In this document: piece by piece, positions 12,137 through 27,068 of the stretch
How positions within the stretch are numbered: the stretch's first letter is position 1
Layout: each line of letters opens with the position of its first letter
Assembly (NCBI GenBank): GCA_009839745.1
Contig: VXPE01000079.1
Location: 44,762-108,761, forward strand
Source of the DNA: Candidatus Poribacteria bacterium
GTDB lineage: Bacteria > Poribacteria > WGA-4E > WGA-3G
Reading direction: 5' to 3'
DNA: 64,000 nt
Notes under the pieces: generated by a model
What the model was told of the DNA's origin: nothing
Databases searched by the model: none
Seen by the model: only the letters and a program-made list of their open reading frames with translations
Translations under genes and position numbers: made by a program

Positions 12137-14371
12137 TTGAAAAAAATGGAACATCAGATTAATCTACCCATCACTGGGATGCACTGCGAAAACTGTACAA
12201 GCACCATCACACGACATCTGAAAAAGATGGATGGTGTCCTTGCCGCAGAAGTTAGCCTCGCCACTGAATATGCGGCGGTTACCTTTGATGCGTCCACGCT
12301 CAGCGAGGAAACCATCGTCGATAAGATCCGAGATCTCGGTTTTGACGTTGTCGATGAAGGTGAAGAAGACACTGCCCGCGCTGCGGAATTCCAACGGCAA
12401 AAGAGGCAATTCACTGTCGGGATCATCTTCACGCTTCCACTCTTTCTCCTCAGTATGGGTAGAGATATGAATCTGTTAGGTGCGTGGGCATCAGCAGGCT
12501 GGGTTAACTGGTTCATGTTTGGCTTAGCATTACCGGTGCAGGGTTACGTTGCTTGGGACTATTACATCGGTGGTTTTAAAGCCTTGCGCCACGGATCCGC
12601 CAATATGGATGTCCTCGTCGCTATGGGTTCATCCGTAGCGTTCCTCTATAGCCTCGTTGTAACGATTGCATTGGGGATGGACGCAGGGACACGCTTTGGA
12701 ACCCACGTCTATTTTGAGACAGCCGCGGTTATCATTACGTTGATTAAGTTAGGGAAACTGATCGAAGCCCGCGCCAAAGGTAAGATAAACGCAGCCCTCA
12801 AAAAGCTCCCTCAACTGTCCCCCCAAATCGCGTGTCGCCTAAAAAACGGCGAAGAACAACACATCCCTATTGAACAGGTCGGCATAGGCGATGTCCTTCT
12901 CGTACGTCCCGGCGAAAGTATTCCTGTTGATGGTGTGGTGCGGAGCGGCAAAAGTGCCATTGATGAAAGCGTCTTCACCGGAGAAAGCCTGCCCGTGGAT
13001 AAGGGACCCGGCGACCCTGTGACCGCAGCAACGATGAATCAGAGCGGAATGCTTACAATGGAAGCCACGCATATCGGCGCAGAAACGGCACTTGCGCGTC
13101 TTGTCCAATTGGTCCAAACAACCCAACAGAGTAAACCACCCATCCAACGCGCCGCCGATGCGGTCACAAACGTGTTTGTGCCTATTGTCTCTGGGGTCGC
13201 CATTGTGACGTTTCTTGTGTGGTGGTTCCTCCTCGGAGAAGGCTTCACCCCAGCAATGCTCCGTTTAGTTGCGATCCTTGTCACAGCCTGCCCATGTGCG
13301 TTGGGACTCGCCACCCCAACCGCCGTTATGATGGGGACGGGTATCGGCGCACAGCGCGGCATCCTCTTCCGAAACGGCGAAGCACTCGAACGCGCGGGAG
13401 ACTTAACCACAATTGTCCTCGACAAAACAGGCACCTTGACAGAAGGGAAACTCAGGCTTACCGATATTCTCACGGATACAGACGCATCAGAACTCCTACA
13501 ACTATGTGCCGCCGCGGAGCGTGGCAGCGAACATCCCATCGGAAGGGCAGTTGTCCAAGCAGCTAAGGAACGTGGACTGGATATCACTACACCGAGCCAG
13601 TTTGAAGCCGTCACTGGGCACGGTATCACCGCACGGGTCGGTGAAAACAGCGTCATCATCGGCAATTTATCCTTAATTCAACAGCACAGCATTTCGACAA
13701 GGAGATTTGAAGAAGACGCAGCGCGTCTGCAGACCGAGGCGAAAACCGTCCTATGGGTCGCCATTGATGAGCAGGTTGCTGGACTTCTGGCGGTGGCGGA
13801 CACCTTGAAATCGGAAGCGCACGCTGCAGTCTCGGAACTCTACGAACTTGGATGTACTGTGGTAATGATGACTGGGGACAACCGCGTTACGGCTGATGTG
13901 ATCGCCAAGGCGGCGCGGATTGGCGATGTCATGGCAGAACTCAAACCCGAAGATAAAGCAGCCGCCGTTAAGCAGTTACAGGCGGAAAATGGTGGACTCG
14001 TCGCGATGGTAGGTGACGGTATCAACGATACCCCCGCATTGGCACAAGCCGATATCGGTATCTCCCTCGGCACCGGCACCGATATTGCCAGGGAGACAGC
14101 AGACGTGACGCTCATGCACAGCGATTTGCGTGGACTCCCCGATGCGATTCGGCTCAGCCGTGTGACGATGCGCACCATTAAACAGAACCTGTTCTGGGCG
14201 TTCTTCTACAATGTGCTTCTCATTCCTGTTGCAGCGGGTGCACTGTATCCACTCTCTTTTGTGCCGATGATGTTTCGGGAGTTACACCCGATGCTTGCAG
14301 CGTTCGCGATGGCGTTTAGCAGTGTATCTGTTGTGCTAAACAGCCTGCGTCTGCAATGGAAAAAGACATGA
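12137..14371 (+). CDS. copA: Copper-translocating P1B-type ATPase
   Basis: N-terminal HMA domain with GMHCENC. CPC motif (ACPCALG), DKTGTLT phosphorylation site and [10 protein letters not shown] hinge. Confidence 0.9.
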
Positions 14372-17300
14372 CATCTAATATCACTTACGGCACAATAGTT
14401 GAAGGTCCTCTATGGTCCGAGCCTGTTCAAGTTTTGGCTTACCATCCACTTCCTGATGGCGGTTTCCATATTGTCGGCACCCTTGCAAATTCGCAAGCAC
14501 CTATCAACGAGGAGATCACGGCAATAGAGGCGGGTGAATTACAGATTGCTCGGTCAGAAGTGAATTTTACCGGCAATGCGCGCCATGCTTTTCTCAGTCT
14601 TGAAGCGAAACGGTACCGATATGCAGCCCTTTACAATCCTACCTTCGCTATTAGTATCTCCAAAGTAGATCCACTGCCGCATCAAATTGAAGCCGTGTGG
14701 CAGGTTCTTAAGCAGACGCGTATCCGTTTCCTCATTGCTGATGATCCCGGGGCTGGTAAAACAATTATGGCAGGCCTCATAGCGAAGGAACTCAAACTCC
14801 GAAACCAGGTCAAACGTATACTGATTGTTGCCCCTGGACACCTAATCACACAATGGACCGAGGAGATGAACATACGATTTGAGGAGAATTTCATACATGT
14901 CACACGTGCCCTCGTCAACACCCATCCATACGAAAACGTCTGGAGTCGAGAACAACAACTAATCACCTCTATAGATTTTGCCCGACAGGATGAAATCCGC
15001 GGAGCAATCGCTAATACCCATTTCGACCTGGTTATTGTTGATGAAGCACATAAAATGGCGGCCTACCAATATGGAGATAAAGTTGAAAAAACCAAAAGGT
15101 ATCAGTTAGGTGAATGCCTCTCTAACTGCACGACACATCTTCTTTTTCTTACAGCAACACCGCATAGAGGAGACTCTGAGAACTTCCGACTCTTCCTTGA
15201 CCTCCTTGAACCCGGTTTTTTTGCAGACCCGATCCAAATCCAGGAATCGATTAAGAAAAACGACAATCCACTTTTCATCCGACGTGTGAAGGAAGACCTC
15301 AAAGATTTTGATGGGAAAAAACTATTCCTACCACGCCACGTTCAGACAAAGCCATTTCGTCTCGGTGCGGAATCCGAAAGTGAAATGGAGCTCTATAACG
15401 AGCTTTCCGAGTACATTCGTGAGCAATATAACAGGTTTTCCGAAAATTCACAGAAGCGACACAATATCGCATTCGCACTTGTCATCTTGCAGCGGCGACT
15501 TGCATCCAGCACCTACGCTCTGTCCGTTTCCCTCAAACGCCGACAACAACGTCTTAAAGAATTGCTGCAGAATGCCACACTCCACACGGACACTATTCCC
15601 ACTGAGCAGCAGCGTGATGAAGTAGAAGATCTCGGTGAAACCGAACGTTGGGAGCGCGAAGAACAGTGGGAGGTCCTCTCTGTTGCCGAAAATAGAGATG
15701 AGTTAAAAAATGAAATTGAGACCCTTAAACACCTTGAGCGGAAAGCAGAACGTATTATTGAAAGTGAAAGTGAAATTAAATTACAAGAACTCAACAAAGC
15801 ACTTGATGAATTAAACGCACGATATCCAAATCAAAAGATTCTTATCTTTACTGAATACTTTGATACGTTAGATTACTTGGAGCAGAAAGTAAAAGAATGG
15901 GGATTTTTCGTATCGACTATTCATGGAAAGATGCCGCATGAAAAACGGGTGGAGGTCCAACACACCTTCGAGAATGAAACACAGATCCTTATTGCAACGG
16001 AAGCCGCAGGTGAAGGTATAAACCTCCAATTCTGCCATTTGATGATTAATTACGACCTACCGTGGAATCCGAATCGTCTTGAACAGCGGATGGGACGGAT
16101 TCATCGCTATGGTCAAAAAAAAGAGGTTCACGTTATCAACCTTGTAGCTTCCGATACGCGGGAAGGGGCTGTCTTCACCCGTCTCTTTGACAAACTTGAT
16201 ACCATTCGGAGCGAACTCGGAACTGATCGCGTCTATGATGTTATTGGAGAACTTTTTCCCCAACGAAATCTGGCACAACTTATGCTTGGAGCCGCAGCAA
16301 ACACACGTGACCATACTCAACTTCTTCAGGAAATTGACACCGCCCTTGGTTCGGAGCAGTTAGATTTTTTTAAAAATTTCAACGAAGATACACTTGTCTC
16401 ACCTTATATCAATCTGCCTCAGGTGAGCGAACTCCAGCAACGACTGCGTGAGCATGGGCTTATCCCGGAGTATACACGCGAGTTCTTTCGGAAAACCTTT
16501 GAAACCCTCAATAGCACACTTCGCTCGCGCAAAGATGAGTTTTTCAGAATTGATCGCATCCCAATTCAAATAACAAGAATTAGTCAGGATACCCAATTCA
16601 AGCAGATGTACCCATCGTTAACACGCAAAAACTATCCGAAAGTAACATTTGATAAAGCCCATACAGCCACGGATTCAACGGTTGAATTCATCTCTTTCGG
16701 TCACTCGCTCTTTGAGGCGGTTCTCCACTATGTAGAAAAGGAATACACCGAGGATTTAAAAACAGGTGCCTGTTTCTCAGATCCAGATGGCAGATTCAAC
16801 GGCATTATCGCTTTCTATGAAGGTGAAATCCGAGATGGAACAGATACAACTGCAGGGAAACAACTTTTTGCTTTCTACCTGCCTCAAGATTCGGAGTCCA
16901 TGGAACAGATTAATCCGACAGTACTCTGGGATTTCCAAGAAGCGTCCCCAACATTAGAACCGATACAGATACAGGAACTTGAAGATAAGATAAGCGGGCA
17001 AGTACGCCTGCGTTTAGATGAATATAAGAAGGAACTTACTGAAGAACGGAAAAGACAAGTAGACATCAAAAGGAAATACGGCATCACCTCATTAGAGAGG
17101 CTCATCTTGAATCTGGATAGTGAGTTACTGGACCTCGCCATTAAAAGCGACAATGGAGAAGATGTCAAACGGCTGGTCCAAAACAAGACAGAACAAAAGG
17201 ATCGCTATGAGGATGAAATGAAGAAGTTAGAGCAATCCTGTCAGCGAGAAGTTACACTTGTTAGAAAGCCACCTGTCTTTACTGGAGCCATTCGTATCCG

Positions 17301-17718
17301 CCCTGCTATGGAGGGCGATGAGACAGAAACACCAATACACAATAGGTTGGAAATTGAACAAATTGGCATGCAGCATGCCATCCACCATGAAGAAGCACAA
17401 GGCTGTGTTGTAGAGGATGTCTCAGCAGAGAGTCTCGGTTTCGATCTGCGATCAAAAACACAAGATGGTAAAATTCGATGCATTGAGGTTAAAGCTCGGT
17501 CCGACCGTGCCCCCGTGGTTCTCACCTCTAACGAATGGTTCAGAGCAAAACAACTCAAAAATGACTATTTTCTCTATGTTGTCCTCAACGCTGCAACACA
17601 TCCTGAATCTTATATTATCCAAAACCCTGCAAGCCAGATAAGTGCCGTTCGACAGATTACAGAGGTAAGGTATCAGGTGCCGCTTTCGGAGATAACAAAA
17701 CGTCGCGAACCAGTTTAG
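14356..17718 (+). CDS. SNF2-family helicase with C-terminal DUF3883 (restriction-endonuclease-like) domain; probable start at ATG 14368 overlapping the copA stop
   Basis: SNF2_N motifs (DDPGAGKT Walker [18 protein letters not shown]) and Helicase_C motifs ([21 protein letters not shown]). C-terminal D...IEVK...YFLYVVLNA matches the DUF3883/PD-(D/E)xK pattern. Confidence 0.85.
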
Positions 17719-17882
17719 TTTCCTGTAACTCCCGTAGGTTGGGTTGAACAGATCCCCAAGATCAACGCTGTCCCACAGAAAATACGAGAACGCTCAAATA
17801 CACTCAATAGACAGCAAAACCAGTGAAACCCAACACTTGAGTTTGGACAAAAACTTCACATACCCTCTTTGAAAAAATCGAG

Positions 17883-17911
17883 TTGATGCTTTAAATTTAA
17901 CATGTTATAAT
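17883..17911 (+). promoter_or_regulatory. Near-consensus sigma70 promoter TTGATG-N17-TATAAT upstream of the TIR-like cassette
   Basis: -35 box at 17883-17888, 17-nt spacer, -10 TATAAT at 17906-17911. About 190-nt leader containing hairpin TCCCCC-TGATAA-GGGGGA (17965-17982). Confidence 0.45.
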
Positions 17912-18108
17912 AATCTAACATGAGTTTGATAAATACTGAGAGGCAGACGCATTCCCTCTTAAAGTCCCCCTGATAAGGGGGATTTAGGGGGTTAACTCCG
18001 TAAAAATAGCGTCTTTTTTCTTAAATGTACCTCTGTCTTGGTTTCTCGGACTTTTTTCAAACTGGCGTTAACCTAACATTAATTACATGAATAACATGGA
18101 AACTGCTA

Positions 18109-18534
18109 TTGGAGATCAGTATTGTGAAAACCTATAACCTTTTTATTAGTCATTCTTGGACCTATAGCGACGCGTACGAAAAATTGATTAATTTGTTAAC
18201 GAAAAGGTCATACTTTCCCTACCGTGATTATTCTGTTCCCAAAGATGATCCTCTACATACAAGTGGTACCGACAAAGCCCTTTATGCAGCGATAAAGAAA
18301 AAAGTAAGTCCTTGTAGTGTCGTATTGATATTAGCAGGCGTTTACGCAAGTTATAGCAAATGGATCGACAAAGAAATCCAAATGGCACAAACCGAATTTT
18401 TGTATCCTAAACCCATTCTTGCCATTGAATCGTGGGGCAGTGAAAAAACCTCTGTTAAAGTAAAAAATGCGGCAGATAAAATCGTTGGCTGGAACACAGA
18501 AAGCATTGTTTCCGGTATTCGGGAGTTGGCATAA
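18109..18534 (+). CDS. TIR-like domain protein (ThsB-like / DUF1863, MTH538 TIR-like fold); start may be GTG at about 18124
   Basis: LFISHSWTYSDAYEKL followed by CSVVLILAGVYASYSKWIDKEIQMA mirrors the ThsB pattern (VFFSFHY...TSVTCVLIGSQTFNRRWVRYEI). Lies in an AT-rich region. Confidence 0.65.
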   Translation: MEISIVKTYNLFISHSWTYSDAYEKLINLLTKRSYFPYRDYSVPKDDPLHTSGTDKALYAAIKKKVSPCSVVLILAGVYASYSKWIDKEIQMAQTEFLYPKPILAIESWGSEKTSVKVKNAADKIVGWNTESIVSGIRELA

Positions 18535-18536
18535 AC

Positions 18537-18974
18537 ATGGATGAAAAGCAGGAATTGTTAGAAATCTACAAACTCCACACGCAACTCGCAGACAATGTTA
18601 GCAATCGTCGTGCAACCGCGAACCGTTTTTATATACTGGTTTTGCCTGGGTTAGCAGTGCTTTTTTCCGCTTTCCTACAGCATGAAAACGGAGTACCACT
18701 CGGATGGCTTATGATAGGTTTCGGACTATTTGGTATGCTTTTAGCGGCAGCGTGGTATATTGTCATTCGCTCTTATCGCCAACTCAATTCTGGTAAATTT
18801 AAAGCGTTGCACGAATTGGAAGAAAAACTGGCTTATCCATTTTTTAAACGCGAATGGGAATTGCTTACGTTGTGTTTACATTCCATCATCAAAATCGTCC
18901 GGAAGTCAGTGCCTATCAGAATTTACGTCTATAGATCAAATGGATATTGCAGAACTATGGAAGCCTTGCCATGA
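18537..18974 (+). CDS. Small 2-TM protein, SLATT-like predicted membrane effector
   Basis: 145 aa. N-terminal helix, two hydrophobic helices (FYILVLPGLAVLFSAFL; LGWLMIGFGLFGMLLAAAWYIVI), then an amphipathic helix. The stop is 3 nt after the TIR-like gene start coupling; an overlapping alternative frame (18760-19008) leaves the 3' end uncertain. Confidence 0.45.
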   Translation: MDEKQELLEIYKLHTQLADNVSNRRATANRFYILVLPGLAVLFSAFLQHENGVPLGWLMIGFGLFGMLLAAAWYIVIRSYRQLNSGKFKALHELEEKLAYPFFKREWELLTLCLHSIIKIVRKSVPIRIYVYRSNGYCRTMEALP

Positions 18975-19218
18975 CTGGATCCGGAGCCACAATGTAAACA
19001 CTACCTAGTGAAGGAAAAGATTTCAAGAGTTATTGGAAACTGTCTGTTGTTGAGACCTTTATCCCTGGAATCTTTTTTTTCGTTTTTTTAGCATTGATGA
19101 TTGTTGGAATTTATTTGGAGATAATTGGTGCCGGCGGGACCCAATAAAAATTATCTGTCTTAATCACTTGATGAAGATTCACCTGATAGATCTAATTCTG
19201 AAAAAGGAGACCTAAACA

Positions 19219-19446
19219 ATGGCTCATGCAGTAAGTTATATTCCCTTCCATCGCGTGAGGAATTGGAAAGTGGGCGATAGGATCATCGTAGATGGAATTC
19301 CTGGGCAAATTCGTGATATTGCTGAATTTGAGAATCCCTCAGGAACCGGAGAGACAATTGCCTCCATCGGTGTCGTGTACGACAATGAACCCGGTGTAAT
19401 TAGACTTGTTGAGTATGATCGACACCAACTCAAACTTGAACGCTAA
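19219..19446 (+). CDS. Hypothetical 75-aa soluble protein
   Basis: AAGGAG RBS 8 nt upstream. No recognisable motif; lies within the AT-rich cassette. Confidence 0.4.
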   Translation: MAHAVSYIPFHRVRNWKVGDRIIVDGIPGQIRDIAEFENPSGTGETIASIGVVYDNEPGVIRLVEYDRHQLKLER

Positions 19447-19535
19447 CTACTATAAAAATCTGGAAAATCCTCAGCAAAAACCATTCACCATGGTAGGTTA
19501 GACAACCTTTTCACGATAATACATAAGGAATTAAG

Positions 19536-20417
19536 ATGGAACAACAGAACCAAGCGATATTGACGAGAGAGTTGTCTCAGCCGATTGCCGCTTGTGTTTT
19601 TTCTAAGGATGATTTGAAAAATCTTTGTGAAGTATTGCAAGAGTGGTCATTTAAAGCATCAGATGAGGAAATAAAACATTACAGTCCACTCAATCGAACA
19701 CCAGAACAATTTAGTGCAGATATTACAGCACTGAAGTCTGGTTTTGAACTAAAGGTGACTGTACAAGGAATAGATGATGAAAGGATTTATGGAACGATCT
19801 CAGATGTATTTAACTCTCCTCGTTTTCCTGATCAGGTTAAAACACTTTACATCAATAGTGAATCAGATTTAAGAAATTTGTACAATTGGTTCCCCAGAAA
19901 TCGATTTGAACTGTTATTAGATTTCACAAAACCCGAACTTTTCAATTTATCACTATTATCCTCCAGAGCTACACCAAACGCCAGCAACATAAATGTTTCT
20001 GGATTAGATTCCACGTGGGTTAGTGGTGTATATGGTGAAATCGCAAATTTTATTGAGAAAAATAGAACACGTCGCGGTTTTTTTCATAGACATAGCATTT
20101 ATGATTTGTTTCTTCTTCTCATAGGACTCCCGTTCGCTTTTTGGATGGCATACAAATTATCAGGACCGATAAACAGCATATTTGGTGAATTTTCTGTATT
20201 CGTTCAAAATGGAGCCTATGTTTGTCTGTTCTTCTTGATGTTACACTTACTCAAAATACTGTTTGACTATGCCAGATGGATTTTTCCCATTGTTGAGTAC
20301 AAAAGTTCAGCAGATAATGCAGGCAAACATAGATACATCTTGGGGGGTTTAATAATAGCGATTTTCGGGAATTTCCTTTACGATCTATTTAAATTTGCTG
20401 CTGCTCTAATCCCATAA
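19536..20417 (+). CDS. Hypothetical protein: about 170-aa soluble N-domain plus C-terminal 3-4 TM helices
   Basis: AT-rich ORF. C-terminal hydrophobic helices (LFLLLIGLPFAFWMAY; AYVCLFFLMLHLLKILF; ILGGLIIAIFGNFLYDLF). No recognised family. Confidence 0.45.
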   Translation: MEQQNQAILTRELSQPIAACVFSKDDLKNLCEVLQEWSFKASDEEIKHYSPLNRTPEQFSADITALKSGFELKVTVQGIDDERIYGTISDVFNSPRFPDQVKTLYINSESDLRNLYNWFPRNRFELLLDFTKPELFNLSLLSSRATPNASNINVSGLDSTWVSGVYGEIANFIEKNRTRRGFFHRHSIYDLFLLLIGLPFAFWMAYKLSGPINSIFGEFSVFVQNGAYVCLFFLMLHLLKILFDYARWIFPIVEYKSSADNAGKHRYILGGLIIAIFGNFLYDLFKFAAALIP

Positions 20418-20460
20418 ACTTAAGCTCCTTTTCCTAAAAATTCCTTGTTAAACAATAAAT

Positions 20461-20489
20461 TTGACAATTAAGTCGCTATCTGGTATCAT
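20461..20489 (+). promoter_or_regulatory. Sigma70-like promoter TTGACA-N17-TATCAT upstream of the methyltransferase
   Basis: Direct reading: -35 at 20461-20466, -10 at 20484-20489, about 32 nt before the start at 20522. Confidence 0.45.
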
Positions 20490-20521
20490 ATCCGCAATTT
20501 TGTGAATGAATGGATTTATAG

Positions 20522-23201
20522 ATGAGTAAAAACAAACGTATCATTGAAGTCGCCTTCCCCGTCGAGGAGGTCAGTAAACAAGGTCGCGGCAAAAACCAAA
20601 TCTCTGGAATCCACAAATGGTGGGCACGCCGTCCCCTCGGGCCCTCGCGCGCTACGGCTTACGCTGCGCTTGTAGACAGCGATTTATCCCCCCCCTGCTT
20701 TACAAAAGATAAGTAATTCAGGCGTTGATGGAACGCTAACTCCACCTAAACACGATTTCATCGCCGAACTCGCCAAGTGGGAGAATGCCCTCAAACCTCT
20801 CTGGATTCAGCAAGCAAAAGAAGATATTCTGGAATCTCACAATAGTAAGGCTCCTAAAGTGCTGGATCCTTTTGGTGGACGCGGTTCTATTCCCTTAGAA
20901 GCACAACGGCTTGGCTGTGAAACTCATTCTTGTGACATCAACCCTGTTGCTATTCTAATTCAGAAATGTACGCTTGAATATCCACAAAAATATGGGCAAC
21001 GTCTCTATGATGATGTTAAGAAATGGGGCGAACATATCCTCGCCGAGGTGACCGAGGAGTTACACCCGTTCTATCCGAAAGACTCCGACGGCTCCGAGAT
21101 TTACGCCTACATCTGGGCCCGTACCCTTCCGTGTCAAAACCTAACCTGCAGTGCCGAAATTCCACTTATTAGCCAGTTTTGGTTGGCAAAAAAGACAAAA
21201 ATACAGAGGAAGAAAAAGATTACCCTCCTTCCTTATGAAGAAAAGGGACAGATTGCTTTTAATATAGTTGGGAACGGTTACAAATCAATGCCGGAAGATT
21301 TTAATCCCCAAAGTGGTACAGTCACTGATGCTAAGGTTACTTGTCCACTCTGTAAAAATACAATATCTGATACGGAGACACCCAGTCTCTTCCGAGACGG
21401 AGAAGCAGACGAAAGGTTGCTTGTTGTTGTTACCAAACACCAACAGAATAAAAATAAACAGTATCGTCTTGCAACGGAGGCGGATAAGGAGGTGTTCAGT
21501 GCCGCGAAGAACAAACTTTCTGAAAAAGAGAAGGAACTTGCTGTTAAATGGGGAGTTAGCCCCATACCAAATGAGGAGACCCCGAGCAATAAAGTATTGG
21601 GCTTCAGAATTAGTAATTACAATCTAAATACTTGGGGTGAACTCTTCAATGAGCGCCAACAACTCTCCCTCATCACCTTTACCGAGAAAATTAGAGAAGC
21701 ATACCCACAGATGCTTTCCCAAGAAAACTACAGTCCCGACTACGCCCAAGCAGTCTCTACTTATCTTGGGCTCTGGCTTAGTTCCATAGCGATGCGATCA
21801 GCAAACCTTTGTCGATGGGGAAATACGACTGAATCAGTTGTAGAAATGTTTGGTATGCAAACCGTGCCAATGGTCTGGGACTACGGAGAAGCAAATTCTG
21901 TAGATGTAGCGGTTAATCGGTTAAAGAGTTTGTTAAAGCCTATGACTCACTTGTGTCAGATGAACGACGAACCTGTTACTATACAATGCTCCTCGGTAAC
22001 GGATCTACCATATCCTGAGAATACCTTCGATGCTGTGCTAACGGATCCACCCTATTACGACAACATCCCCTACGCCTATCTCTCCGATTTTTTTTACGTA
22101 TGGCTAAGACGGAGTATTGGAACTCTCTATCCGAAACTCTTTGAAACGGATTTAACTCTCAAAGATGAAGAAATCGTGGCGTATAGTCACCATGCCGGTG
22201 GAAAACAGGGCGGAAAAGTGTTTTTTGAAACAGAACTCTCCAAAGCCTTCAAAGAGATGCATCGCGTGCTAAGACCCAACGGCATCGCTGTCATCGTTTA
22301 TGCCCATAAATCCACCGAAGGTTGGGAAACTCTGATTAACGCCCTATTGGACTCAGGACTTGTGGTGACAGGAGCGTGGCCAATTGATACAGAGATGAAA
22401 TCTCGTCAGCGATCATTGGACTCCGCAGCCCTTGCCTCCTCTATCTACATGGTAGCGCGCAAAAGAGAGCGGGAAGCGTTCGGGATCTATCAGGATGTAA
22501 AAAAAGAGTTAGATATCTATCTTGAACAGAAACTCTTTACCTTATGGGAATGGGGTTTCTCTGGTGCCGATCTGTTTATTGCGGCAATTGGTATTGGTAT
22601 TGAGGTATTTGGGAAATACGAAACAGTCATTGATGACGATGACAACCTCATTCGCGCAGATAGGATAATAGGGGACATCAGGGAAATATTGGAGCATTTC
22701 GATGGTGAACAAGCGGGCATAGCTGGTACACGGCTCACACGATTCTACCTCCGCTGGCGGCGGGAACACGGAGAAAAATCGGTAATTTTTAACGATGCGC
22801 GCGAACTCGCGCTCTCCCTCGGTATTGAACTCATAGAAGAGTGGGGGGAAGACAGCTTTATCCAGCAGGAGAAAACAAACGTGCGCGTGTTAGGTCCGCA
22901 AGAACGGGAACAGACTGACCTCTCTAAGCGTGAGGAGCTGATTGATGTTCTGCACCATGTGTTGCTGTTATGGCGTTCGGGGAACCGGGCTGAGATGGTC
23001 CAACGGCTTTCAAAAGATCGTATCGGTATAAACGAACTGATATGGAATGTCGCACAGCAAATCAGTGCAGCACTCCCAACAGATAGCCAAGAACGCCAAT
23101 GGCTTGAAGCATGGCTGGCAGACCGGGATACTATTCAGCGCGAAGTACAAAATCTTTTAGAAACGCCTGAAGAGGGAACATTGTTTTTAATCGCAGATTG
23201 A
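20522..23201 (+). pseudogene. DUF1156/COG1743 Zn-ribbon N6-adenine DNA methyltransferase, interrupted by a frameshift in a C8 homopolymer (20688-20695). One fewer C restores an 893-aa ORF.
   Basis: N-terminal piece (20522-20716) carries the DUF1156 signature IEVAFPVEEVS...HKWWARRPL. The downstream piece (GTG 20859) has motif I VLDPFGGRGSIPLEA, Zn-ribbon cysteines, and motif IV VLTDPPYYDNIPY. I translated the 140 nt between the pieces by hand in the downstream frame and it is open (…PPALQKISNSGVDGTLTPPKHDFIAELAKWENALKPLWIQQAKEDILESHNSKAPK). Confidence 0.8.
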
Positions 23202-23259
23202 TGCAAGTGAAATCCAATATAGAATAGAATCGGAGATAGGCACAGCCTAACAGGAAACC

Positions 23260-26106
23260 ATGCTATGGAAGAATGGAAAAGGAGTACTCATGAGATTACC
23301 TCCCTTTGAAACCATCGCGAAACCGCACAACGATATATTGAAAGGCAGGTTTACGGCAGACACTTATGCTGCAAGACTTGGACGAGTCGTCAAAAATGAG
23401 GGCCCCCTTGAGTACAGAAACGCCCAGCGGTTTTTTGAGAGGACACACGAGACAAATGGATTGATGTCTCTCCTAAATGGTGTAGAAGGTCGTTTGAAAG
23501 GACGCAATCGGCAAAACCAAGATCCAATCGTCCAACTCCAGACCCCCTTCGGCGGCGGAAAAACGCACACGCTCATTTCGCTCTACCATAAGGCAAAAGA
23601 GTGGAACGCTCTCCCTGTAGTGATTGTCGGATCAGACATGGACCCCGGACAGGGAGATACCTTTTGGGGATCTATTGAGCAGCAACTCACGGGCGGTCTC
23701 CAACGTTTTAAAAAGCAAGTCGCCCCGGGCACAGAGAGTCTCTCCGAGATGTTCACTGATACGAAACAACCGGTACTCATCTTGATGGACGAAGTGCTGA
23801 ACTATCTTGAACGTGCCGCGGGGGTACCAATTCAGAAAAGCACATTAGCAGAACAGACTCTGGCATTTATGCTGTCCTTAACAGAAGCAGTTGCATCTAA
23901 CAATAATATCGCTTTTATTGTGACTCTACAAGAGAGTGAAGTCGCACCGATTGAAGATAAGTATTCACTCTTCACTGATCTCCTCACACGCATGAGACGC
24001 GTGGTCACCCCGGTTGAAGATGCCGAAATCGCCAGTATCATTCGGAAACGGCTTTTCGGAGAGGTTAACCTCAATGAAGTCAAGCGGATGGCTCGGGAAT
24101 TCGCAAAATACGCCAGACAGGAGAGTATTCTTCCGCCCGGCATTCAAGAATCCGAATATCGCAAACAATTCGTGGAAAGTTATCCGTTCCAGCCCGAAGT
24201 TATTGATGTCCTCTATCAGAGGTGGGGGAGTTTCCCGAACTTCCAGCGAACCCGGGGAGTGCTTAGGTTTCTCTCACGCGTTGTCCATCGCGTAAGCGGT
24301 AAAAACCGACCCTACATCACGCTCGCAGATTTTGACCTCACTGACAGCGACATCCGTGATGAACTCTTAGAGCACATTGATGCCCCCTACCGAGGGATCA
24401 TCGCCAGTGATATCACAGGACGCACTGCCGGTGCGAAAGCCGTTGACACAAAATTGGGAGGCACTTATCAACATTTGGCATTAGGCACGCGCACCGCGAC
24501 TGCTATCTTTCTCTATTCTTTTACAGGCGGCATGGAACGGGGAGCAAAATTGGATGAGATCAAACGGAGTGCAGCCGTTCTGGAACATCCCTCGGCTATC
24601 GTAGATACAGTAAAACACCTGCTCACTGAACACCTCTTTTACCTCCGCACTGAGAACGGGACTTCCTATTTTGACACCCAACCCAACTTAAGACGAATTG
24701 TGCAGACCCGAATGGACAATATTGACGATAAAGTTGTGGCGGGACGCAACAGTACACAACTTCGGAAGAGTTTCAAATCGAGTGGGTATCTTAAAACCTA
24801 CATTGCGCCAAAAGATGGAACGGATATTCGCGATACCGACGACTTAAAACTCATTGTGTTATCCAAACGAGATGACGCGTTTTGCCAAAACCTCGTAGAG
24901 AATCGCGGTGAAACACCGCGTATCTATCGCAACACCCTATTTTTCATTATTCCATCCGCCGGGGAAGCGAACCAATTAAAGACAGAAGTTAAATCAGTGA
25001 TCGCTCACGAGGAAATTAAGAAAGATAATTCCCTAAATTTATCAACTACTCAGAAAAAAGAGATTGATACTGCATTAAAACAGTCTGATAGTGCGTTAGA
25101 GAATGCAGTGCGTCAGGATTACCGCATTGTTCTGATACCAACAAAAGAGGGATTTCGTGAGGAAGATCTTGGGTTGCCCGCCGCTGGTATGAGTACCCCG
25201 TTTGATGAAACAGTCTATGAGATGCTCCGTGTGAAGTCTGAAATTTTAACAAGCATTGGACCTCGAAATATCTCAATCCGCTATCTGAAGGATAATGATA
25301 CTGTGTCAACCTCACAGTTGTTCCACTCCAGCCTTCGTTCCCCGGGTGAAACGCGTGTGCTCCGCGAGGCATGGATAAACGGCATCCGTCAGGGGGTTCA
25401 GGATGGACTCTTTGCACTTGGAGAGAAAGCAGGCGGCAAACTCGTTCCACGCTACTTTAAAGAACTCCCATTAGAAGTTACTTTGGACAACGACGAAGTC
25501 ATTATACAACCTAACCTCATTCGGGAAAGTATTACGTCAGAAGACATTTTACGGGACTATCTAATGGACAACAAGGCGGTCTCAACCTCTCAGCCGTTCC
25601 AATACAACCAGCAATCCACTAACGAGCCGCGATCGCTTCGCAGTACTTGGGAGATGGCAATCCGTGAAGGTATCCAAAAAGGCACATTTGGGATCGGGGA
25701 TAAACTGGGCGCTGAAGTCATTCCACGTGCTTTCAGGGAAGAAACTCCACCTATTACCTTGAACGATAACGAGGTTCTCATCCAGGCATCACTTTGCACG
25801 AGGCTGATTGCCCATCCACCACAACCAGACTTAAGACCAGCAGGAAATCAAAGTGGTCCGGAGACACCGCCGCCTGATCCAGGATCGACATCAGCAGCAA
25901 ATCTGCCTCGGAAATCAATTGGCATCCGATTTACATTACCGCAAGGGAAGGTAAGCAACGTGGCACAGCATTTCAACCAATTGCAAACCAACTTTCAAAA
26001 CATGCAAATTGAACTAAAAGCCTCCGATGGTGAAATCTCACAAGATGCTTACGAGGAACTTAAGGAGAATTTACGGGCATTAGGAATTGAGATTGAGGAA
26101 ATATAA
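23260..26106 (+). CDS. DUF499/COG1483-family P-loop ATPase (methyltransferase-associated)
   Basis: Walker A LQTPFGGGKTHTLISLYH. About 950 aa. C-terminal region holds an internal tandem duplication of an ~85-aa module (VSTSQLFHSS...DNDEVIIQ / VSTSQPFQYN...NDNEVLIQ). Confidence 0.75.
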   Translation: MLWKNGKGVLMRLPPFETIAKPHNDILKGRFTADTYAARLGRVVKNEGPLEYRNAQRFFERTHETNGLMSLLNGVEGRLKGRNRQNQDPIVQLQTPFGGGKTHTLISLYHKAKEWNALPVVIVGSDMDPGQGDTFWGSIEQQLTGGLQRFKKQVAPGTESLSEMFTDTKQPVLILMDEVLNYLERAAGVPIQKSTLAEQTLAFMLSLTEAVASNNNIAFIVTLQESEVAPIEDKYSLFTDLLTRMRRVVTPVEDAEIASIIRKRLFGEVNLNEVKRMAREFAKYARQESILPPGIQESEYRKQFVESYPFQPEVIDVLYQRWGSFPNFQRTRGVLRFLSRVVHRVSGKNRPYITLADFDLTDSDIRDELLEHIDAPYRGIIASDITGRTAGAKAVDTKLGGTYQHLALGTRTATAIFLYSFTGGMERGAKLDEIKRSAAVLEHPSAIVDTVKHLLTEHLFYLRTENGTSYFDTQPNLRRIVQTRMDNIDDKVVAGRNSTQLRKSFKSSGYLKTYIAPKDGTDIRDTDDLKLIVLSKRDDAFCQNLVENRGETPRIYRNTLFFIIPSAGEANQLKTEVKSVIAHEEIKKDNSLNLSTTQKKEIDTALKQSDSALENAVRQDYRIVLIPTKEGFREEDLGLPAAGMSTPFDETVYEMLRVKSEILTSIGPRNISIRYLKDNDTVSTSQLFHSSLRSPGETRVLREAWINGIRQGVQDGLFALGEKAGGKLVPRYFKELPLEVTLDNDEVIIQPNLIRESITSEDILRDYLMDNKAVSTSQPFQYNQQSTNEPRSLRSTWEMAIREGIQKGTFGIGDKLGAEVIPRAFREETPPITLNDNEVLIQASLCTRLIAHPPQPDLRPAGNQSGPETPPPDPGSTSAANLPRKSIGIRFTLPQGKVSNVAQHFNQLQTNFQNMQIELKASDGEISQDAYEELKENLRALGIEIEEI

Positions 26107-27068
26107 CTCTCCACTGCTTCCAATACCTGTTCCACTGTAATCCCCGCAATCACTTCACAGCTACCAGCACCGCATCCCCCCGGATACCGCCCCGGATGGC
26201 AAGGATTGCAACCCAGATTTATCCCGCTCTGCAAAACTGTATGTGGGGCGCCGTAGGGACCGCTCCGAATATGGCTCGTTGAACCGAAAAGCGCAACGAC
26301 AGGTGTTCCGACAGCGGCTGCGATATGCATCGGTCCCGTGTCATTTCCAATATACACATCACACGCAGAGATGAGTGCCGCGAGGTGTCGAAGATCGTCC
26401 GTTTGGACGAGCATGGGGGGGACATCCATCTTTTCCGCGACCTGTGCTTGGAGGGCTCGCTCATTCGGACCCGCAAAGAGTAAAATCGTTGCATTGCGCT
26501 TCTTTGCTAAAATGCTCGCGACCTCCGCATAGTTCTTTCCGTCCCACAACTTATATTCCCAGTTCCCACCGGGATGGATCCCGATTAGCAACCCTTCTGA
26601 TTTAAGACCTCCCTCGGCAAGAAAATTATGTGCAGCAGTCCGCTCCACTTCCGTCAATGCTACGAGTGGATGTGCATTGGTTGTGTCAACGCCTTGTCTC
26701 TGAAGCACTTCTAAATATCGAGTGACAGCATGGCGATTGCTTTCACGGCGTGCCATCCCCCAGTGTTCCGCGCCGATACATCGCGCCATCAGACTGTCGC
26801 GTAGGTTGACAACGAGATCGAATTTCTCAAGTCGTAAGGTTCTGATGAGACGCAGTCTCCCTTTCCAACCGGCGTGTTCGCCTTGATTGTCATAAATGAG
26901 CGTTGCATCAATATTGGGATCCGTCGCAAGCAGGTCAAACGCTCGCGGTCCGACAAGGAAGGTAATGTGAGCATCTGGGAAGTGTTTTCGCAGTGGTTGG
27001 ATAACGGAAGTAGACAGGACCGCATCACCGATAAAAGAGAAACTAAAGACGAGAATTTTCTTCAGCAT
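26049..27068 (-). CDS. Glycosyltransferase family 9 (ADP-heptose:LPS heptosyltransferase-like)
   Basis: N-terminal KILVFSFSFIGDAVLSTSVIQPL and C-terminal ...IGNDTGPMHIAAAVGTPVVALFG are GT9 hallmarks. Its 3' end overlaps the DUF499 gene end convergently. Confidence 0.8.
   Translation of the reverse strand: MLKKILVFSFSFIGDAVLSTSVIQPLRKHFPDAHITFLVGPRAFDLLATDPNIDATLIYDNQGEHAGWKGRLRLIRTLRLEKFDLVVNLRDSLMARCIGAEHWGMARRESNRHAVTRYLEVLQRQGVDTTNAHPLVALTEVERTAAHNFLAEGGLKSEGLLIGIHPGGNWEYKLWDGKNYAEVASILAKKRNATILLFAGPNERALQAQVAEKMDVPPMLVQTDDLRHLAALISACDVYIGNDTGPMHIAAAVGTPVVALFGSTSHIRSGPYGAPHTVLQSGINLGCNPCHPGRYPGGCGAGSCEVIAGITVEQVLEAVESYISSISIPNARKFSLSSS

Follow-up and report, generated by a model that had tools for sequence, protein, structure and literature searches.

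The question raised by this locus is whether a DNA methyltransferase gene whose reading frame is broken inside a run of cytosines is switched off, decayed, wrongly sequenced or still read through by recoding. The gene, hmaB, lies between hmaA and hmaC in a stretch of 64,000 nucleotides of contig VXPE01000079.1 from the sponge symbiont Candidatus Poribacteria bacterium (the whole of this stretch being referred to here as the window), in an operon assigned by profile matches to the Hma defence systems. Its frame is interrupted at a tract of eight cytosines (C8, positions 20688–20695), which an earlier note, made from the sequence of the window, had put forward as a possible phase-variable switch. 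Comparison with related loci bears this proposal out: near-identical, syntenic contigs carry C7, C8 or C9 at this site, which toggles the frame between ON (in frame) and OFF (out of frame), and OFF alleles were found to be otherwise intact and under purifying selection. With a probability of roughly seven in ten, C8 in the window is a slipped-strand contingency switch of hmaB in its present OFF position. Phase variation is supported by sequence comparison at the level of the clade and in a sister lineage; in the strain of the window itself the OFF allele is real and putatively reversible.

Split reading frame of hmaB

The sequence and its translations confirm that C8, the longest G/C run in the 64-kb window, breaks the methyltransferase frame. 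The upstream open reading frame (ORF) translates as MSKNKRIIEV...DSDLSPPCFTKDK before its stop codon (elsewhere written MSKNKRIIEVAFPVEEV...AALVDSDLSPPCFTKDK), and its 64 amino acids (aa) match exactly a 64-aa gene call in public assemblies. Six sense codons were counted between the end of the run and this stop, not the eight codons given by the earlier note, and the downstream frame, which had been described as −1, is +1 by its coordinates. It is free of stop codons across the gap, as had been claimed, and remains open for 841 codons (Table 1). The earliest ATG, GTG or TTG in this frame is the GTG at 20859, which yields the 780-aa gene call MXV84968.1 of a Candidatus Poribacteria metagenome-assembled genome (MAG), on an 81,420-bp scaffold of sample SAMN12347673. 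When hypothetical alleles were translated, C7 gave a continuous HmaB of 892 aa and C10 one of 893 aa, with C5, C6, C8, C9 and C11 out of frame. Restoration of the gene by C7 thus stands, with its predicted size of 893 aa corrected to 892 aa (893 codons including the stop). Both wrong frames reach stop codons at most about ten codons past the tract.

The C7-repaired protein matched the PADLOC model for HmaB (E=1.3e-115) and also that for PglXI (E=2.2e-13). A match to Pfam DUF1156 (E=1.4e-9) agrees with the earlier assignment of the 64-aa N-terminal fragment to this family. The repaired protein carries an FxGxG-type motif (DPFGGRG) and a DPPY motif, and the product of hmaB is, by these matches, a DUF1156 N6-adenine DNA methyltransferase of predicted activity.

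The linker in whose codons the tract lies is variable and joins the conserved DUF1156 segment at the N-terminus to methyltransferase motif I; nowhere does the alignment vary more than from the tract to the PPKH motif. An AlphaFold (AF2) model had a mean predicted local distance difference test score (pLDDT) of 72.5, with residues 1–38 of low confidence. Residues 54–74, for which the tract and the adjoining 3' bases code, had a pLDDT below 50 and were without secondary structure, between a helix at 39–50 and another at 76–83. The linker is predicted from this model to be disordered, and in such a disordered and variable linker gained or lost prolines should be harmless. A PDB sequence search returned only a marginal match to a tRNA methyltransferase (E=3.6e-4). 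Foldseek comparison of the AF2 model with the PDB returned nothing at E<=0.001 (the top entry being the CamA adenine methyltransferase, E=3.8e-3, template modelling score 0.11–0.17) and was uninformative on the structure of the N-terminal segment. It should also be noted that the nucleotide motif following the tract (window 20696–20790; ACTTTACAAAAGATAAG and variants) is read in differing frames among lineages: 'FTKDK' falls in the frame of the methyltransferase body in the lineage of gene call P0025, but in the window it is part of the frame that terminates. Further small indels have therefore been absorbed by the linker.

Recurrence of the tract in the poribacterial clade

At least one C8 occurred in 68 of 100 dinucleotide shuffles of the window. 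C8 taken alone was therefore rejected as significant, and the case rests on the position of the tract and on the alleles of its relatives. With regard to position, 13 of the 19 C/G runs of eight or more bases in 1.27 Mb of related loci and the window fall at one hmaB codon position, which is far beyond chance.

The 79 loci from species-representative genomes included a close clade (>54% identity) that consists almost entirely of Poribacteria. Over all loci fetched, 21 had a tract at this same codon position, directly after the conserved ...AALVD(S) codons; six of these are in frame and fifteen out of frame, with both wrong frames present. In the more distant homologues (<=54% identity; 129 in all, drawn from metagenomes and other phyla), the hmaB site was free of tracts and frameshifts throughout; among them, the loci from metagenome_contigs (all <=52% identity and non-poribacterial) were used solely as an outgroup control. 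The comparison of tract lengths at homologous loci that had been called for earlier thus uncovered C7–C23, in all three frames and in the poribacterial clade only. The tract of locus L006 (C13, out of frame) lies on a contig whose name (k141_...) suggests a MEGAHIT-style short-read assembly, so the pattern is seemingly not tied to one sequencing platform. CCC accounts for 22% of the proline codons in the window, yet up to seven of them occur consecutively (L011); long CCC runs are therefore not a by-product of proline coding.

The same pattern was seen in public gene calls. Among the 99 best protein-cluster representatives, about 46 are without an in-frame N-terminus. Of the truncated representatives, at least 19 begin 'MVGTP...' or 'MGKPTP...', which is what the conserved KWWARRPLGPSRATAYAAL codons give when read in +2 and can have no source but a frameshift, and 12 start at an internal 'MLDPFGG', as the window does. 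N-terminal truncation in roughly half of the clade's public gene calls is probably biology rather than bad assembly.

Tracts were also observed outside the gene. At L002 (7746–7757, C12) and L042 (7802–7810, C9) they lie about 200–250 nt upstream of hmaB genes that have no in-gene tract, and on their 3' side comes a ...TTAAGTA... stretch similar to what follows the in-gene tracts. These could be relics of a displaced 5' segment, or tracts acting at the level of the promoter.

Tract length in near-identical strains

The length polymorphism described here belongs to a sister lineage with 93% amino acid identity to the window, the window's own strain being represented by C8 only. A protein cluster at 90% identity was found to hold both full-length members (891 aa; P0123 and P0127) and truncated members of 776–837 aa, on contigs that are syntenic with the window over hmaA, TIR, 8xMP, orf75, orf293, hmaB, hmaC and GT9. 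Contigs L080, L081 and L082, from three samples, differ by 2–8 substitutions over 7.95 kb, and the tract is their sole indel: L080 has C8, encodes 891 aa and is ON, L081 (320x) has C7 and is OFF, and L082, with C9, is OFF in the second wrong frame. Apart from the tract, the 7.95 kb contain 49 homopolymers of at least five bases, among them a T8 run, and all of these are invariant in the three contigs. L083 (36x contig) likewise has C8 and is ON, and L084 has C20 and is OFF. The 3' part of hmaB in the window is 93% identical to full-length ON orthologues.

Selection on OFF alleles and alternative explanations

In each OFF allele examined for an open frame, 823–897 codons are open downstream of the tract. 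The ratio of nonsynonymous to synonymous substitution rates (dN/dS) between the window and its orthologues was 0.12–0.135 at a dS of 0.29–0.45, OFF–OFF pairs included and with 0.12 for the 3' part of the window's hmaB against full-length ON orthologues, and among paralogues of one genome it was 0.26–0.33 for ON and OFF copies alike. Open frames and low dN/dS indicate that these frames were productive for most of their divergence and that the breaks are recent, as reversible switching predicts.

Several observations weigh against a working switch. L080 (6x) and L082 (4x) are low-coverage long-read contigs in which a homopolymer miscall is possible, although the contrast of C7 in L081 (320x) with C8 in L083 (36x) is independent of both. 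The window's own strain has C8 in both samples in which it was found. An exact look-up of its C5, C6, C7, C9, C10 and C11 alleles in a collection of 15 billion proteins returned none, so no ON allele, and when metagenome contigs of the Joint Genome Institute (JGI) were scanned by flank pattern, no other tract length turned up for the lineage of the window (0 matches). The in-frame share of 6/21 (29%) equals the one-third expected for a random frame, and there is thus no sign of selection for ON at sampling. Second lesions, both frameshifts, were found in L021 and L066, and in L088, the window's nearest relative, the tract is interrupted (C7TC5) and large parts of hmaA, hmaB and hmaC are deleted; some OFF alleles therefore decay, and OFF can become permanent. 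The constancy of C8, the state of L088, the second frameshifts and the random-like ratio of ON to OFF are also what a plain, irreversible pseudogene would give, in which the poly-C is a mere mutational hot spot, the operon is being lost and no adaptive switching takes place. Such irreversible decay is unlikely on balance, yet a serious rival for the window's own strain, whose closest relative has a decayed system. The 841 downstream codons have stayed open, and all columns invariant in a 32-sequence alignment are kept in the repaired protein (by construction, since that protein is itself a member of the alignment). The low dN/dS extends to OFF–OFF pairs, and 12 of the 15 OFF alleles are without a second lesion. 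Tracts have been kept, up to C13–C23, against codon preference, and near-identical ON and OFF strains that differ at the tract show very recent length changes in both directions.

That C8 is a sequencing or assembly error, with a true tract of C7 (or C10) and an intact gene, was the alternative named in the earlier note and is now disfavoured, being very improbable. Homopolymers are error-prone, a metagenome consensus can mis-size them, and several of the related loci come from long-read assemblies. The second-sample contig VXXG01000456.1 (SAMN12347681), on the other hand, is identical to the window over 5.6 kb and likewise has C8, and the ORFs that hold the five remaining G7/C7 runs of the window, or its A8/T8 runs, are all unbroken, which makes a random miscall unlikely. 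Contig names of the form NODE_..._cov_ in the MAG series indicate a short-read, SPAdes-type assembly (the platform being deduced from the names), an OFF length is found at 320x coverage in the sister lineage, and 15 independent loci have a broken frame at the site, as against 0/129 in the outgroup. Slightly less probable still is that full-length HmaB is produced from C8 by recoding, through +1 slippage of tRNA-Pro on CCC-C or through slippage of the RNA polymerase. CCC-C is a +1-prone site, and a +1 slip on TCC-CCC-CCC-T lands exactly in the downstream frame. Programmed recoding sites, however, keep a fixed direction of shift and a slippery sequence among orthologues, whereas the hmaB tract occupies all three frames at C7–C23 and coexists with in-frame alleles. 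No stimulatory element was seen, though no search was aimed at one. Programmed recoding was rejected as the main explanation because neither frame nor length is conserved; at most it would make OFF leaky, and the C8 sequence suggests that OFF may be slightly leaky through a +1 slip on CCC-C.

Identity between L088 (on the 10.3-Mb contig ctg105775_843x, corresponding to window 14362–25276) and the window is uneven. At the nucleotide level it is 96–99.5% around the 5' end of hmaB and elsewhere falls to as little as 82%, a mosaic (82–99.5%) that suggests the strains have recombined. L088 has lost the 5' 1.7 kb of hmaA, about 1 kb inside hmaB, the 3' end of hmaB and the 5' 2 kb of hmaC, and has gained a 435-nt insertion upstream of hmaB.

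Proposed mechanism and comparison with known systems

In the proposed switch, polymerase slippage (slipped-strand mispairing) at the homopolymer during replication would add or remove cytosines. With each base gained or lost, some 830 codons downstream enter or leave the frame, and translation of the C8 allele ends after 64 aa. The length changes would be reversible and frequent enough to keep both ON and OFF cells in a population. The 64-aa product is expected to be inactive, as is any product re-initiated at GTG 20859, which would begin inside the first Rossmann-fold strand and lack the invariant N-terminal residues. OFF cells would lose Hma methylation and methyltransferase-dependent target recognition and would not restrict their own DNA, as in the Pgl/bacteriophage exclusion (BREX) and Type III systems, and the long untranslated stretch may also lower expression of hmaC by polarity. 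The pay-off could be bet-hedging between the cost or autoimmunity of defence, the acquisition of foreign DNA and the pressure from phages within the sponge.

The earlier note had feared that, with the methyltransferase OFF, the associated restriction activity would have to be silenced too or the cell would restrict itself. This worry is probably unfounded. Passages of PMC11232893 describe that HmaA alone protected Escherichia coli against T4 and report no harm to the uninfected host, experimental phage protection being given there for the HmaA of Halomonas only, and in the related BREX systems neither modification nor restriction proceeds without the methyltransferase (PMC12707154). By analogy with these reports, switching the methyltransferase OFF is expected to disarm the methylation-dependent arm of the system and not to kill the cell.

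Switches of this kind are already known, from pglX of Pgl/BREX and from Type III mod genes. In the Pgl (BREX type 2) system of Streptomyces coelicolor, an in-ORF G/C homopolymer in an N6-adenine methyltransferase gene, pglX (brxX), toggles the system, according to passages of PMC6326788. HmaB can be likened to this family as a reported homologue of the BREX type 3 methyltransferase (PMC12839542). Unlike Pgl/BREX, Hma has three core genes and no PglZ and is found here in another, uncultivated phylum, and switching of hmaB is deduced here from sequence comparison. Phasevarions (Type III mod and Type I genes of Haemophilus, Neisseria and Helicobacter) similarly have repeats within the ORF that slip and toggle expression, and their methyltransferases are needed for target recognition, so that OFF disables restriction too (PMC12707154). 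They differ from hmaB in that they occur in host-adapted pathogens, involve classical restriction-modification enzymes and have demonstrated effects on a regulon; the hmaB tract, for its part, codes for a proline linker after the DUF1156 N-terminal segment. No homopolymer switch is described for the Hma of Halomonas meridiana, the string 'phase vari' is absent from a 2026 survey of these systems (PMC12839542), and a literature search found no report of a poly-C switch for Hma nor of phase variation paired with Poribacteria.

So far, defence methyltransferases switched by homopolymers have come chiefly from pathogens that can be cultured and from the Pgl system of Streptomyces; the finding extends such switching to the recently defined Hma/BREX-related family, and to a phylum that is uncultivated and lives obligately with sponges. 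The ON and OFF populations on public record offer a natural experiment in which the target motif of the DUF1156 methyltransferase could be revealed, and which could also show whether Hma defence needs HmaB. Censuses of defence systems in MAGs may miscount systems that are merely switched off.

hmaB paralogues in one chromosome

The 4.0-Mb Candidatus Poribacteria chromosome OY730443.1 was found to contain at least nine hmaB paralogues (L008, L010, L011, L014–L017, L019 and L023) with 86–90% nucleotide identity, and they are homologous only over some 2.8 kb, a unit that comprises promoter, ribosome-binding site and coding sequence. Only L010 is near hmaA and hmaC; the other eight have no hmaA or hmaC within 8 kb, and L011 and L014, whose neighbours were scanned, lie among housekeeping genes (TonB receptor, PAP2, Rieske, TnpB). 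Poly-C tracts are present in seven of the nine, two of them ON and five OFF. It is tentatively suggested, as a possibility that is rather doubtful at present, that Poribacteria keep a family of poly-C-switched DUF1156 methyltransferases, made up of copies inside Hma operons, as in the window, and dispersed orphan copies (at least eight in one genome, with their own promoters), the independent flips of which would give a combinatorial, heritable and reversible state of methylation. If true, such a family would amount to a multi-switch phasevarion, or to bet-hedging of defence, in an uncultivated sponge symbiont.

Organisation of the Hma operon and neighbouring genes

From its profile matches, the operon is a Hma system, since renamed DUF499-centred BREX-related (BR), with components reported as homologues of BrxC, the methyltransferase and BrxHII of BREX type 3 (PMC12839542). 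All three core components are present, that of hmaB only as a frameshift-split gene in the window allele (Table 1). HmaA also has Pfam matches to SNF2-rel_dom, Helicase_C and NOV_C, with an intact D...EVK motif (PD-(D/E)xK) in its C-terminal translation. The hmaC gene starts 58 nt past the hmaB stop and is co-directional with it. Neither hmaA nor hmaC has a tract comparable to that of hmaB.

Table 1. Coordinates of the Hma operon and associated features in the window
Feature	Position	Strand	Evidence and remarks
hmaA, SNF2 helicase with C-terminal NOV_C nuclease	14356..17718	+	Intact; PADLOC HmaA E=5.6e-203 over 8–1094
ThsB-like TIR-domain gene	18109..18534	+	Between hmaA and hmaB; Pfam ThsB_TIR E=1.2e-14; PADLOC ThsB
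8xMP membrane-protein gene	18537..18974	+	Pfam 8xMP E=5.9e-27; directly 3' of the TIR gene
Conserved 75-aa ORF upstream of hmaB	19219..19446	+	No family match; beside hmaB in many poribacterial loci
Conserved 293-aa ORF immediately upstream of hmaB	19536..20417	+	No family match; kept in L001, L006, L018, L020, L080–83 and L088
Sigma-70-like promoter candidate	20461..20489	+	TTGACA, 17 nt, TATCAT, with upstream TG; 33 nt before the hmaB ATG
hmaB 5' fragment	20522..20716	+	64 aa; conserved DUF1156 N-terminus; ATG 20522, TAA 20714–20716
hmaB 3' part	20676..23201	+	+1 frame; 841 open codons; stop 23199–23201; motif I DPFGGRG, motif IV DPPY
Poly-C tract C8, proposed hypermutable switch	20688..20695	+	CCCCCCCC; OFF setting here
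hmaC, DUF499 AAA+ ATPase	23260..26106	+	Intact; PADLOC HmaC E=2.4e-108; Pfam DUF499 E=6.7e-39

The promoter candidate in front of hmaB is the best match in 17600–26300 (11/12), as a match to the consensus only, and its position suggests that hmaBC may be transcribed separately.

Hma of Halomonas meridiana comprises the same three core proteins (HmaA-HmaB-HmaC), and passages of PMC11232893 describe other defence genes inserted inside Halomonas hma operons, as is also the case in the window. The inserts differ, being Septu in Halomonas meridiana and, in the window, the ThsB-like TIR gene, the 8xMP gene and two unknown ORFs. The TIR and 8xMP genes, which are 3 nt apart, are kept as a pair between hmaA and hmaB in L001, L020, L022 and L080–L088, and may together form a two-gene module of defence nested inside the Hma operon.

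A stand-alone DUF3780 gene, the mark of Type-2 BR systems, was not seen in the 75-aa and 293-aa ORFs, which had no Pfam match at E<=0.01, and nothing was found for either of them in Pfam, PADLOC or NCBIfam. Both adjoin hmaB even where the TIR/8xMP pair is lacking (e.g., L006), and possibly they serve this Hma subtype as accessory genes that await characterisation.

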